Assembly (NCBI GenBank): GCA_963834025.1
Contig: CAWIAI010000008.1
Span: 20,080-84,079 of the forward strand
Origin: an uncultured Acidobacteriota bacterium
GTDB taxonomy: Bacteria > Acidobacteriota > Terriglobia > Acidiferrales > UBA7541
Length of the DNA stretch: 64,000 nt
Direction of reading: 5' to 3'
The notes below the pieces were generated by a model that was given only the letters and a program-made list of their open reading frames with translations, ran no database searches and was not told the origin of the DNA. Each line of letters opens with the position of its first letter. Position 1 is the stretch's first letter. Below are positions 877 to 57,225 of this stretch, one piece after another. Both the position numbers and the translations under genes were made by a program.

Positions 877-904
877 ATGTCCGGTAACCCGACCGGGGAC
901 TTGA
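877..904 (-). repeat. dif-like 28-bp site, GTCGGG spacer type (outer arm about 3 bp shorter)
   Basis: Plus strand ATGTCCGGTAA-CCCGAC-CGGGGACTT. Element A ends in it. Confidence 0.7.
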
Positions 905-957
905 ACCGAATCGTGATAAATTCGACCCCGCACGGTGTGTTGCCACCGACAACAAAA

Positions 958-1308
958 ATGGAACATACACGGACCCTTCGGCAGGATTTAAGTGTGGTTG
1001 CAGAACGGCTTCGGAAGTATCGGCATTATGGGCAGGCACGGGTCGTGGAAGAGGTCCTTGCCACGCTGGAAACATCCGGCCCAGATTACAAGCAGCTGCG
1101 GGGAATCGACATGTGGGGTGGCGCTGGTGCAGTGTGGGAGGTCAATCTTGGTTCATCGCAGGGGTCCACTGAAGAGAAGACTGACCGCGCATCCTTTTTC
1201 AGAGCATTCATTCGACTTGCGGACACGATGAACCACGCGGGTCTCGGCACCGACCGCTCTCGATTTATTGGGGAGACGTTCCAATCTTGGCTGGAGAAGG
1301 GGTCGTAA
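958..1308 (+). CDS. Hypothetical protein (cassette-like, between two dif-like sites)
   Basis: ORF 853-1308 starts inside the IS end, so ATG 958 (MEHTRTLRQ...) is the plausible start. Stop lies about 35 bp before the next site. Confidence 0.6.
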   Translation: MEHTRTLRQDLSVVAERLRKYRHYGQARVVEEVLATLETSGPDYKQLRGIDMWGGAGAVWEVNLGSSQGSTEEKTDRASFFRAFIRLADTMNHAGLGTDRSRFIGETFQSWLEKGS

Positions 1309-1342
1309 GCTCATTTCCTTCGGAATAGAACAGTTGATGCTA

Positions 1343-1370
1343 AGTCCCGATTAACGCGGTTACCGAAAAA
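1343..1370 (+). repeat. dif-like 28-bp site, ACGCGG spacer type
   Basis: AGTCCCGATTA-ACGCGG-TTACCGAAAAA followed by GTGAAAA, as at 19408. Confidence 0.85.
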
Positions 1371-1439
1371 GTGAAAAAGGCGTCGGCACTCCCTCCCCCA
1401 GCGACACAGTCGTCGCAAGCCCCGGCCGGATCGGTTTCG

Positions 1440-54423: not shown

Positions 54424-54727
54424 GGTGACACCTACGTCTACGAGGCTGGATTTGTAGGTGTAGCAGCAGGCAGACTGAGCTCGAAATACAGCGTCTCATG
54501 TAGATTTCCTGAGTACGCGGGCGTACCAAATGTCGGTCTTCATAACGTCGCGCCCCTCGTCAAACAGACTCGAACGATATTGAAGATGCACGAACTCTAA
54601 AAAGCCTCGTAGGTTCTCGCATGAATTCTAAAAAGCGAAGGGGGCCGCTCCTAGACGGGGCCTCGCCAGTACCCGCCAAGATACCAACGAGGCTCCTGAC
54701 AGTCGTTCAGAGGCGAACCCGCTGTTC

Positions 54728-55790
54728 CTACCCTGCCGCCGCCCTCGCAGAGTCGCTGCTTGAATCGAAAGGAACACGGGCGTGGATGGTGGTACCCCGC
54801 TTCGGTTGCGAGTCGATTGAAAGGGCACCGTTCAGCACTTTCAGGCGCTCCTCCATGCTGATTAGACCAAGACCCCGACTCTCCTTTGCTGCTTCGCGGT
54901 CAAAGCCCGCGCCGGAATCCTTGACCGTGAGGTGAATCTCATCCGACGCTCCCCATAATCGCACTTCGAAGTGCCGTACTCCACTGTGTTTCGCCGCATT
55001 GTGGAGGGCTTCTTGCAGAACTCTGAAGAGGCACAGAGAAATGTCCGGCGACAACGGGCGGGGCAGATCGTGGACGTTGAAGTCAATCTCAACTTTCTGC
55101 TGTTCGGAGAACTCTTGGCAGAAGCTTCTGATGGCTCCAGCAATACCCAGATATCGCAGTTTTGCCGAGTGCAATTCGTGCGACAAGAATTGAATGTCGT
55201 CGGCTATGTCCGTAATCTGCTTCTGGAATTCGCCCATACGGCTGCGGACTTCAGGCAAAATGAGAGTGTCTTCGTGGAGTTGTTGTAACTCGACAGCCAC
55301 AAGGGCGAGACGTTGACCGATGTCGTCGTGAAGCTCTCTGCCAATTCGGGCACGTTCCTGCTCCTGTGCCTCAATCAACTTGCGGCTGACGTTTGCGAAC
55401 GCGGCTTCCGCGAGTTTCCGCTCGGTGATGTCGATAAACGCGACCACCGCCCCAACAACCTTCTCCCCTCTACGCTGGGGATACGACCAATACTCAGCAG
55501 GGAAACTCGTTCCGTTCGCTCTCCAAAACACCTCGTCCTCCGCGTGGACTCCTTCCCCAGTTCGTGTTACCCGGTGAACTCGACACTCCTCTACGGGGAA
55601 CAGTGTCCCGTCCGAACGAGTGTGATGTATCAAATCATGCGTATTCTTGCCGAGGACTTGGTCAACGTGCTCGTATCCCAAAGTGCGGAGGCAGGCAGGG
55701 TTGCAGAACGTGCATCGGTGCTCGAGATCAATTCCATAAATGGCTTCGGCAGTGGAGTCGAGAAGAAGTCGAAGTTTATCCTCACTCTCG
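54728..55790 (-). pseudogene. PAS-HisKA_3 histidine kinase, N-terminally truncated
   Basis: Frame is open upstream of the listed start (ESEDKLRLLLDSTAEAIYGID) but has no start codon. ERARIGRELHDD kinase core similar to 32583-35507. Confidence 0.75.
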
Positions 55791-55840
55791 CAACGGCAAA
55801 CGCCGTTACTGAGGGGCCTATTCTTTTTTCAAAACGCCGT

Positions 55841-56671
55841 TTACGGCTTTGCCCTACGACGCGCAGTTGATGAATGGCTGTCCTGGCTATTAGCCTGTGG
55901 ATCGCCGCCGCAATCGTTGCGTAGCTCGTTGGGGGCTCCTGCCGGCGGCGGGCTCGTTGAGTTGTCGATGCAGGGGATCGCACTTAGATACTCGTACATG
56001 GCATCGATCTGATGGTCGGTCATGTTCGCAAACGTTGGCCACGGCATGACTTGGAGAAGATTACCGTCGGCCGTATTGCCGGGCGAAGTGGGAATGCAAA
56101 CTGGGAATGGGGGAGTACCTGTTTCGATTTGTGTCAGTTGCGCTGCCGTGCAGGTTGGATGGATGTGATCGAAATCGGTGCCGTCTCTGAGGATCTGCCT
56201 AAACCGTGCAAGCGTGTTGCCCCCTTCCGCGCGCCCAGTCTTGTCGGGTGTCAAGTTGCGGGTAATGATGTCTGGACCTGGATACATCGCAGGTCCGGTG
56301 GGAGTCCCGACGGGACCGAAGTCCATCCCCCCGCTCAGGTACACAGTCGGATCGACCTTGGTCTTCTGGTTAAAGTAGGGGTTTCCGCCTGCGGCGTAAT
56401 TGAAGTTTGGAGGCCCGCCGCTGGTGTGGCAACCGTTGCAGTCGCCAACAGCGTTGACCAGGAAGCTGCCCAGTCCCACCAAGTCCCGGTCTTTTCCTGC
56501 CAGATTCAGCGGGACGGGCGCGATCTCGAAACCTATACGGATGAGTTGCGCCTCGCCGTCATTGTCCCACGCTTGTACGCGCGGAGAAGTTCTCAACATT
56601 CCTACGAGAAAAATCACACCGAGTGTGACGACAACCCCCGTAGCGATTTTGACAAGTTGTTGTGACTTCAT
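55841..56671 (-). CDS. Cytochrome c family protein
   Basis: Signal/anchor, CNGCH heme motif, RNLTPD and MPW motifs. Confidence 0.8.
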   Translation of the reverse strand: MKSQQLVKIATGVVVTLGVIFLVGMLRTSPRVQAWDNDGEAQLIRIGFEIAPVPLNLAGKDRDLVGLGSFLVNAVGDCNGCHTSGGPPNFNYAAGGNPYFNQKTKVDPTVYLSGGMDFGPVGTPTGPAMYPGPDIITRNLTPDKTGRAEGGNTLARFRQILRDGTDFDHIHPTCTAAQLTQIETGTPPFPVCIPTSPGNTADGNLLQVMPWPTFANMTDHQIDAMYEYLSAIPCIDNSTSPPPAGAPNELRNDCGGDPQANSQDSHSSTARRRAKP

Positions 56672-57150
56672 TTGTGGATTCTCCTTTGTGGATTTGTCCT
56701 GGACCAGTCAAGTTCAAGCGGCCCAAAGCGAACGGACGTTCTCCTTCGACTGGCCGGTACACGCAAAAACACTGTGACCCTGCGAGTCATGGCCGGAGAC
56801 CCAGAAAACCCGTTGAAAAAACATGGGAACAACCGTTGAGAAAACAGGAAAAAAGGGGAACTGCGCGAAGTCTGCGCTCGTCGGTCCGAATTTGTCAAGC
56901 CGGAACAGCCGGAACAGGCTCCAATCAACACAAAGGTCGCGAACGAGCCGATCCGACGAGTTCATTAGCCAGTTCTTGCTGCGGTTTTCCATTTCACTCT
57001 TGAATGCCCCGTAGTGTCGACCGTTGGTTCGGCCCGCCGTCGAGGATTCCGCCCGAGTCAAACAGCGTTTCGAAGAAATCCGTTTGAGTAACGTGTCGCC
57101 TGTAGAAGGCCGCTCCTGTGAGCCCGTTTGGTTTGATCATCCAGTTTCAC

Positions 57151-57225
57151 TTGCCTGGTAAGTCGGGTTACCGTACATGTGGTTTTTGGCTTTGATTTCC
57201 TCCGGTAACCGCGTTATACGTCCAG
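57151..57225. repeat. Intact head-to-head pair of dif-like sites (75 bp), unoccupied IS target
   Basis: TTGCCTGGTAA-GTCGGG-TTACCGTACAT, 19-bp linker, TCCTCCGGTAA-CCGCGT-TATACGTCCAG. Confidence 0.9.

Follow-up and report, generated by a model that had tools for sequence, protein, structure and literature searches.

What are the 28-bp sites that recur between genes in this genome of an uncultured soil acidobacterium, and do they bound units that move? The window considered here is a stretch of 64,000 nucleotides (assembly GCA_963834025.1, contig CAWIAI010000008.1, positions 20,080 to 84,079; Acidobacteriota, Terriglobia, "Acidoferrales"-type MAGs). An earlier note described a family of dif-like sites in this window, with two 11-nt arms around a 6-bp spacer, and proposed that they are tyrosine-recombinase sites building a cassette array, possibly served by a dedicated or divergent recombinase. 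We find that the observation is real. The interpretation is only partly supported: geometry, spacer classes, orientation and bracketed genes are as described, but neither a recombinase acting on the sites nor current mobility has been shown.

A pattern search at ≤3 mismatches found seven of the listed sites in the window, against 0.01 expected from shuffled sequence. Direct reading of the sequence confirmed the sites at 877, 1343, 11303, 12054, 14078, 19408, 19830, 24216, 27087 and 32338, as well as the pair at 57151/57198. By contrast, the two candidates that the note called weaker, at 7093 and 21497, are degenerate: the former keeps a GTCGGC-type spacer and about 7 of 11 positions of the outer arm, and the latter has indels. 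One half-site had been missed, an outer arm at 15679-15689 that is separated from 14078 by an IS110-family element. The two spacer classes in the note (ACGCGG and STCGGR) hold and generalize, over 459 distinct sites, to ACGC-NN, which we refer to as "c1", and GTCG-NN, which we refer to as "c2". Orientation alternates over nine consecutive sites from 877 to 19857, counting 7093 and 15679. The "compact doublets" of the note, at 14078 and 32338, are fused forms that lack the inner arms and the linker, only three of which exist in the genome; the intact canonical unit is 57151-57225. The features of the window are as follows (C5, C8 and C15 are contigs of this genome, G000).

877-904, minus strand: c2 site (spacer GTCGGG on its own strand); the outer arm carries a 4-nt deletion, and the inner arm abuts the right end of an IS110-family element occupying 1-876.
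905-1342, plus strand: cargo module with outer arms facing in, holding one gene (958-1308, no Pfam family); a second copy at C8:220545-220992 is 92-93% identical and also lies between a c2(-) and a c1(+) site.
1343-1370, plus strand: c1 site (ACGCGG), with no recognizable partner half following it.
7093-7120, minus strand: degenerate c2-like site (GTCGGC on its own strand), arms only partly kept.
11303-11330, plus strand: c1 site; with its 12-nt linker it is 96% identical to a doublet in a related genome (L013:17141-17190).
11331-12053, minus strand: cargo between the inner arms of a c1/c2 pair, holding one gene (11395-12033, weak DUF1841 match) and unique in the genome.
12054-12081, minus strand: c2 site (GTCGCA on its own strand) with a degenerate inner arm.
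14078-14105, plus strand: fused c1/c2 doublet (outer arm, ACGCGG, TAA, CCCGAC), cut by a second IS110-family element at 14106-15678.
15679-15692, minus strand: outer arm of the c2 half separated from 14078 by that insertion.
19408-19435, plus strand: c1 site of a doublet split by a roughly 370-bp transposase-less derivative of the first IS110 element (about 19460-19829).
19830-19857, minus strand: c2 site, partner of 19408; a response-regulator gene beginning just beyond it has an 88% identical copy beginning just beyond another doublet at C5:354 kb.
21497-21540, minus strand: degenerate site-like relic with indels.
24216-24243, plus strand: c2 site (GTCGGA) followed by a full IS110-family element (about 24244-25615, transposase 24476-25570 on the minus strand); the c1 partner is lost.
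27087-27114, plus strand: c2-like site (CTCGGG) followed by a mini IS110 derivative (27115-27479); the c1 partner is lost.
32338-32374, plus strand: fused doublet without inner arms or linker.
57151-57225, plus strand: intact doublet in the opposite array orientation, with c2(+) at 57151-57178, a 19-nt linker, and c1(-) at 57198-57225.

The family is not confined to the window. About 150 class-specific sites lie on all large contigs of this 8-Mb genome, contigs that look chromosomal, with tRNA genes present. Only 7 of 148 sites lie inside long ORFs, although such ORFs cover 77% of the genome, and 68% have a neighbor within 5 kb, against 17% expected. The sites occur in 48 of 61 genomes of the same genus, most genomes examined being MAGs, with near-zero hits for a reversed-pattern control, and they are found in many other Acidobacteriota MAGs.

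Intergenic, imperfectly palindromic sites that occur in inverted pairs of two types, joined by a few linker families, resemble REP sequences, such as the two REP types paired through set linkers in E. coli BIMEs, or REPIN doublets. In this view, they would be selfish or structural repeats that spread on their own or serve transcription, mRNA or nucleoid functions, and would be mere landing pads for insertion sequences. The targeting of the sites by IS110-family elements, as is seen for REPs in other bacteria, the failure to find a recombinase, and the stability of the array between near-identical strains (see below) are consistent with this reading. Nonetheless, we consider it unlikely. First, the sites cluster in arrays of accessory genes rather than being spread through core intergenic regions; for example, about 25 hits in the related genome G001 fall in about seven loci. 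Second, positions of the would-be stem do not covary over 459 sites (Fisher p=0.79 and 0.32), with 236 of the 459 having an A.C mismatch there. Third, the only Y1 (RAYT-like) gene is not flanked by the sites. Fourth, there are no families of identical copies that would mark recent bursts. Lastly, cargo sometimes sits between the two halves of a doublet, and the spacer has a conserved, non-palindromic core.

The two classes are tied to orientation. Inverted neighbors are almost always one of each class, with 121 c1/c2 pairs against 10 pairs of the same class, and all 29 classifiable doublets of 31 found are c1+c2. Of 103 intervals between inner arms, 37 are 30 bp or less, whereas intervals between outer arms are rarely under 200 bp, with a median of 1.4 kb. 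The pairs therefore often appear as doublets of roughly 66-85 bp. The first four bases of the spacer are invariant per class, while the last two are fairly uniform within a genome and differ between genomes (e.g., ACGCCG in G001 and ACGCGG in G000), which fits a need for matching crossover regions. In related genomes, doublets separate single accessory genes in arrays of 10 or more modules, with one tightly fitting ORF each, that lie between ordinary chromosomal genes and differ between species; such arrays recur in many genomes of the genus. The cargo is cassette-like and heterogeneous (glyoxalase, DinB, SnoaL, hydrolases and mostly unknowns), and is mostly absent from 100 genomes of the same genus.

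Arrays of this kind, with tightly packed single accessory genes that each have an imperfect-palindromic element of about 70-80 bp, invite comparison with integrons. Each doublet could be a divergent attC site, folding as single-stranded DNA with the outer arms as the R box, the inner arms as the L box, and the mismatched spacers as the unpaired central spacer; the arrays would then be clusters of attC sites lacking an integrase (CALINs). The size of the doublet lies within the attC range, the invariant parts of the two spacers (ACGC against CGAC) cannot pair, the single-gene cargo is integron-like, attC sites are also targeted by IS110/IS1111-family elements, and chromosomal attC sites are known in Acidobacteria (PMC8352920). 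However, several observations make this reading improbable: (i) no hit reaches the TIGR02249 cut-off for integron integrase in this genome or 40 relatives, and the best hits lack model positions 179-235; (ii) doublet halves are no more alike than shuffled pairs (outer arms p=0.68, inner arms p=0.9998); (iii) there is no R''/R' consensus pair (RYYYAAC and GTTRRRY), since AAC/GTT triplets occur only at the c1 end and the c2 end has AAG/CTT; (iv) cargo ORFs face both ways, 25 against 19, although these are crude calls of longest ORFs made without a gene finder; and (v) genes of 0.6-3.4 kb lie between the halves in several cases.

The closest known architecture is that of the pdif sites and dif modules of Acinetobacter, which depend on XerC/XerD (PMC13141974, PMC6449649), a parallel already drawn in the earlier note. 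In both cases, 28-bp 11-6-11 sites alternate in orientation, giving two module types with outer arms or inner arms inward (the C and D modules of PMC13141974); some modules carry no ORF; exchange would need matching spacers; insertion sequences target the sites; and the cargo is accessory genes in either orientation. The sites described here differ in lying on apparently chromosomal contigs of uncultured Acidobacteriota rather than on Rep_3 plasmids, in having only two spacer classes, tied to orientation, and in the short intervals, often 9-25 bp, between inner arms. No recombinase has been linked to them.

Could host XerC/XerD nevertheless use these sites? The inner ends are TAA/TTA, and the outer arm matches both the E. 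coli XerC arm and the XerC arm of the host dif at 7 of 11 positions, both counts being made by eye. Host XerD passes its equivalog cut-off, a XerC-like protein is just under, and these are the only tyrosine recombinases shared by site-rich genomes. However, comparison with the host dif, which the earlier note had named as a check, argues against this possibility. The host dif is a canonical site, TTATAA-GTTATA-TTATGTTAAC, at C15:831203-831224; it is single copy in 31 of 61 genomes of the genus and lies at the GC-skew maximum of C15. Its XerD arm shares only 4 of 11 positions with the inner arm of the family, TTACCGGACAT, and its spacer is AT-rich rather than GC-rich. Another dif candidate, a perfect palindrome at C15:1159092, was rejected because it is not conserved in the genus. 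Of five nearly complete site-free genomes of the genus, three have no site with the inner arm of the family, and the other two have only isolated one-mismatch hits, no more than the reversed-pattern control. The suspicion in the note that host XerD is not the enzyme is therefore supported, and use by host XerC/XerD looks unlikely.

A search for an alternative enzyme gave no candidate. Site-rich genome G020 has 13 sites and only XerD, XerC and one 427-aa integrase; G001 shares only XerC/XerD with it. In 116 site-centered loci, the only recurrent mobility genes are IS110 and IS30-like transposases, and the array flanks in G001, G010 and G020 encode ordinary genes. A truncated recombinase fragment at window positions 27909-28451 has only another fragment as relative.

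Evidence for movement at the level of modules comes from one case. Window positions 899-1342 are duplicated 200 kb away (C8:220545-220992), and homology ends inside the two sites: the outer arms are shared, whereas the inner arms and everything beyond are unrelated. This module is absent from 150 other genomes of the genus, and an exact look-up of the 958-1308 product found nothing. The response-regulator gene beside 19830 is a partial case, and most cargo is unique. No ongoing rearrangement was seen, since the one near-identical contig examined, from a strain 99.5% identical, is colinear over 20.7 kb of the array. Other shared genes, such as the PQQ dehydrogenase, show homology limited to the gene and not reaching the sites, and so are not evidence for module transfer. 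The genes flanking the G001 array are not neighbors in G000 or G010, such that no empty site could be defined.

We consider it about as likely as not that the 28-bp elements are double-stranded, protein-binding core sites of the tyrosine-recombinase kind, with two 11-nt arms around a 6-bp crossover region, and that c1 and c2 are heterospecific classes that should not recombine with each other. In this view, c1 and c2 face each other through their better-conserved inner arms, the outer arms (YAA-STCCYGRTWA) face the cargo, and a cassette is one or a few accessory genes plus one doublet. Recombination between two c1 sites or two c2 sites in direct repeat would excise or insert such a unit, while one c1 x c1 event followed by one c2 x c2 event would swap whatever lies between them. 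This is the logic of Acinetobacter dif modules and of engineered cassette exchange with heterospecific sites (e.g., loxP/lox2272, FRT/F3), in which two site classes with the same arms but incompatible spacers flank a cassette in inverted orientation, allowing clean exchange without excision between the two sites. The latter is a laboratory design, and the parallel is inferred from architecture only. What our analysis establishes is the architecture of the sites, the rules of class and orientation, the arrays, the intergenic position, the absence of hairpin constraint, the difference from the host dif, and one module duplicated with breakpoints in its sites. That the sites are recombination sites at all, that any tyrosine recombinase acts on them, and the way in which modules move are inferences.

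A bolder possibility, which we hold only tentatively, is a chromosomal gene-cassette system, widespread in Acidoferrales-type Acidobacteriota, that is independent of both integron integrases and host XerCD, with cassettes bounded by two heterospecific double-stranded site classes and excised, inserted or swapped by a recombinase not yet identified, which may be carried on unbinned plasmids or other incoming elements. This would be a natural counterpart of recombinase-mediated cassette exchange. Gene-cassette platforms are known as integrons, with single-stranded attC sites and IntI, and as Acinetobacter plasmid dif modules, with Xer. A third platform in abundant, uncultured soil Acidobacteriota, using double-stranded sites of two incompatible classes and an enzyme that is neither IntI nor, apparently, host Xer, would broaden how accessory genes are known to be stockpiled and exchanged, and would point to a new recombinase-site pair with built-in cassette-exchange logic.

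Lastly, the sites might serve HUH (IS91-type) rolling-circle transposases as targets or surrogate ends, with modules moving by read-through transposition. About 20 IS91-family elements carrying an upstream tyrosine recombinase sit in these sites, with subfamily A always in c1 after CGTTW and subfamily B always in c2 after GACTT; their orientation is fixed, and their right end mimics the inner arm plus core. We consider this reading very unlikely, since the elements are absent from the site-rich genomes G001, G003, G010 and G020, the sites show no hairpin covariation, and modules are flanked by inverted rather than directly repeated sites. The same absence rules against the IS91-linked recombinases as the enzyme of the system, and the joined element ends, read from the junctions, do not rebuild site-like arms. 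The sites do explain why several unrelated insertion-sequence families, three IS110-type and two IS91-type, home to the same 28 bp in this genome.

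The consensus proposed in the earlier note matched 7 times in the window at up to 3 mismatches, against 0.01 expected from shuffled sequence, and direct reading of the sequence confirmed all of the strong sites that the note had reported. The observation therefore holds. Two positions that the note had listed as weaker candidates, 7093 and 21497, proved to be degenerate relics. In addition, one half-site had been missed: the outer arm at 15679-15689, which is separated from 14078 by an IS110-family element. The window corresponds to positions 20080-84079 of contig C8 in an 8.06-Mb, 15-contig genome (G000). 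Contig C8 carries tRNA genes at the usual density, so it is most likely chromosomal.

Across the whole genome there are 124 matches to the consensus of the note, and about 150 class-specific sites at up to 2 mismatches. The spacers fall into two classes, ACGC-NN (“c1”) and GTCG-NN (“c2”), with the first four bases being invariant. The outer arm is (Y)AA-STCCYGRTWA; the inner arm, TWAYCGKACAW, is better conserved. Sites avoid coding sequence: only 7 of 148 lie inside ORFs of 150 aa or more, although such ORFs cover 77% of the genome. Sites also cluster, with 68% having a neighbor within 5 kb, against 17% expected.

The intact unit is a doublet, consisting of c1, a 9-25-nt linker drawn from a few families, and then an inverted c2. 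We found 31 doublets, and all 29 that could be classified are c1+c2. Among neighboring sites, 121 inverted pairs are heterotypic and 10 are homotypic. The intervals between inner arms are bimodal: 37 of 103 are 30 bp or less, while the rest carry insertion sequences or, sometimes, genes. By contrast, intervals between outer arms are rarely under 200 bp and have a median of 1.4 kb. In related genomes, the doublets separate tightly fitting single ORFs in arrays of 10 or more modules, flanked by ordinary chromosomal genes such as those for DAHP synthase, glycosyltransferases and kinases. The same pattern is seen in G000 itself, at C8:452-457 kb. Within the window, the relevant features are as follows:

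1-876: IS110-family type A element (see below), abutting the inner arm of a site
877 to 19857: one array with alternating sites
899-1342: cargo module holding the gene at 958-1308
14078-14105: fused doublet lacking inner arms and linker
14106-15678: IS110-family type B element
17243-18535: IS256-like (Mutator family) transposase, inside a cargo interval of the array
19460-19829: transposase-less derivative of the IS110-family type A element, abutting the inner arm of a site
19973-21216: response-regulator/MEDS gene
24216: c2 site that lost its partner, next to an IS110 copy
24244-25615: full copy of the IS110-family type A element, abutting the inner arm of a site
27087: c2 site that lost its partner, next to an IS110 copy
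27115-27479: transposase-less derivative of the IS110-family type A element, abutting the inner arm of a site
27909-28451, minus strand: C-terminal fragment (180 aa) of a tyrosine recombinase, just beyond the 27087 site
32338-32374: fused doublet lacking inner arms and linker
57151-57225: intact doublet in the opposite orientation

The pattern is not confined to one genome. It occurs in 48 of 61 sampled genomes of the genus, with near-zero hits for a reversed-pattern control. A scan of species-representative genomes returned at least 116 stretches, nearly all from Acidobacteriota/Terriglobia MAGs named Acidoferrales, Acidoferrum, Acidiferrum or Sulfotelmatobacter. Single exact c1 matches were also found on contigs of MAGs labelled Chthoniobacterales, Baltobacteraceae, Fimbriimonadales and Aquilonibacter (loci L030, L045, L050 and L078); these could reflect mis-binning or transfer beyond Acidobacteriota. 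Array content is largely species-specific: most modules of a 12-kb array in G001, a site-rich genome of the genus, have no DNA match in 100 genomes of the same genus.

We asked whether the sites are conserved as folded structures or as duplex DNA. Between the two halves of a doublet, the identity of the arms is no higher than for pairs shuffled within a genome (outer arms, 8.52 against 8.60, p=0.68; inner arms, 8.06 against 8.75, p=0.9998). Within a site, the two variable would-be stem pairs do not covary over 459 distinct sites (Fisher p=0.79 and 0.32), and A.C mismatches are the commonest state. The sequence is therefore conserved arm by arm, as expected for protein binding to duplex DNA, and not as a hairpin. 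This speaks against attC-type folding, against REP hairpins, and against hairpin recognition as the constraint that maintains the sites.

ORFs between outer arms face either way, 25 against 19, although the ORF calls used for this count were crude. Of 55 cargo ORFs, most have no Pfam family. The remainder are glyoxalase/bleomycin-resistance proteins, DinB, SnoaL, alpha/beta hydrolases, an acyltransferase, a metallo-beta-lactamase fold and DUFs. No recombinase is among them.

We also searched for a candidate enzyme. No integron integrase reached the model cut-off in G000 or in 40 relatives, and the only RAYT-like gene has no flanking sites. G020, a genome of the genus with 13 sites at up to 1 mismatch, has three tyrosine recombinases: XerD, a XerC-like protein and one 427-aa integrase. 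G001 shares only the Xer pair with it. XerD passes its equivalog cut-off (374 bits against 329.6), whereas XerC is just under (330-334 bits against 335). We located a candidate host dif outside the window at G000:C15:831203-831224, with the sequence TTATAA-GTTATA-TTATGTTAAC. It lies at the cumulative GC-skew maximum of contig C15, is present exactly once in 31 of 61 genomes of the genus at up to 1 mismatch, and is canonical in form. However, its XerD arm shares only 4 of 11 positions with the inner arm of the family, and its spacer is AT-rich. Moreover, three of five nearly complete, site-free genomes of the genus hold no site with the inner arm of the family; the other two have only isolated one-mismatch hits, no more than the reversed-pattern control. 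Host Xer is therefore an unlikely enzyme for the family. The tyrosine recombinase fragment beyond the 27087 site has as its only relative in the genome another fragment, on contig C11. In 116 site-centered loci from many MAGs, the only recurrent mobility genes are IS110-family (22 loci) and IS30-like (6 loci) transposases. Thus, no recombinase was identified in the genomes and loci examined, although MAGs often lack plasmids, so absence from them is weak evidence.

As evidence for movement, the module at window 899-1342 has a 92-93% identical copy at C8:220545-220992, again between c2(−) and c1(+). The outer arms are shared. The c2-side spacers are identical, while the c1-side spacers differ at 3 of 6 positions; the inner arms differ, and everything beyond is unrelated. 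The module is absent from 150 other genomes of the genus. In addition, a response-regulator gene starting just beyond the 19830 site has an 88% identical copy starting just beyond another doublet. The response-regulator/MEDS gene belongs to a family of about 7 paralogous copies (75-88% identity) scattered over the genome, one of which also starts next to a doublet. By contrast, a contig from another assembly is 99.5% identical and fully colinear over window 8700-29390, insertion sequences included, which argues against high activity. A shared PQQ-dehydrogenase gene is not site-bounded.

The closest described architecture is the Acinetobacter dif-module system, which has alternating C/D and D/C sites, C and D modules, an ORF-less D module, and recombination only between sites with identical or near-identical spacers (PMC13141974). 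The family described here differs in that its arms and spacers are unlike the host dif, its two spacer classes are locked to orientation, almost all intervals between inner arms are reduced to a linker, its arrays are chromosomal and in another phylum, and no enzyme is known. The resemblances to integron attC sites and to REP/BIME repeats fail the defining tests for those systems. The site family extends to a whole genus and beyond. The interpretation offered in the earlier note, a cassette array built on tyrosine-recombinase sites, is supported in part. It is the best supported of the readings we considered, at about as likely as not, but it rests on architecture plus one duplicated module; these are what the analysis shows, whereas binding and recombination of the sites by any enzyme are inferred. 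The main rival, a REP/BIME-like repeat, appears unlikely. On present evidence, what is new is a set of departures from the dif-module theme, but it could be more than that if a dedicated recombinase is found.

Several insertion sequence families home to the sites. The first, IS110 type A, has a right end, CTCTAACAATGTCGGCCC, that abuts the inner arm (which reads ...GGACAT up to the boundary). Besides the full copy, there are about 80-90 derivatives of roughly 390 bp in the genome; the derivatives lack the transposase and measure about 370-390 bp. The second, IS110 type B, is unrelated to the first, is present in about 35 copies, and sits at the junction of outer arm and spacer. The third IS110-family element (320-aa transposase, 10 or more copies) has an end that abuts or replaces the outer arm of c2 sites, with the boundary falling between …CCATCTGATTA and GTCGGA; examples are at 10571-12046 of locus L014, and in G000 at C3:357590-359076.

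A further group consists of 2.5-kb IS91-family elements, which carry a Y2 transposase and an upstream, XerA-like tyrosine recombinase of 297-299 aa. They are found at G000:C3:359485-362010 and in about 19 other copies (e.g., C8:459804-462319). Subfamily A always lies in c1 after CGTTW, and subfamily B always lies in c2 after GACTT; all are in one orientation, and the right end mimics the inner arm. This class specificity could be set by either the HUH transposase or the recombinase. The IS91-family elements are absent from the site-rich genomes G001, G003, G010 and G020, so they do not explain the arrays.

Lastly, the two fused doublets of the window and a third at G000:C8:14790, all lacking inner arms and linker, are consistent with deletion between the directly repeated CGGT of the two halves.
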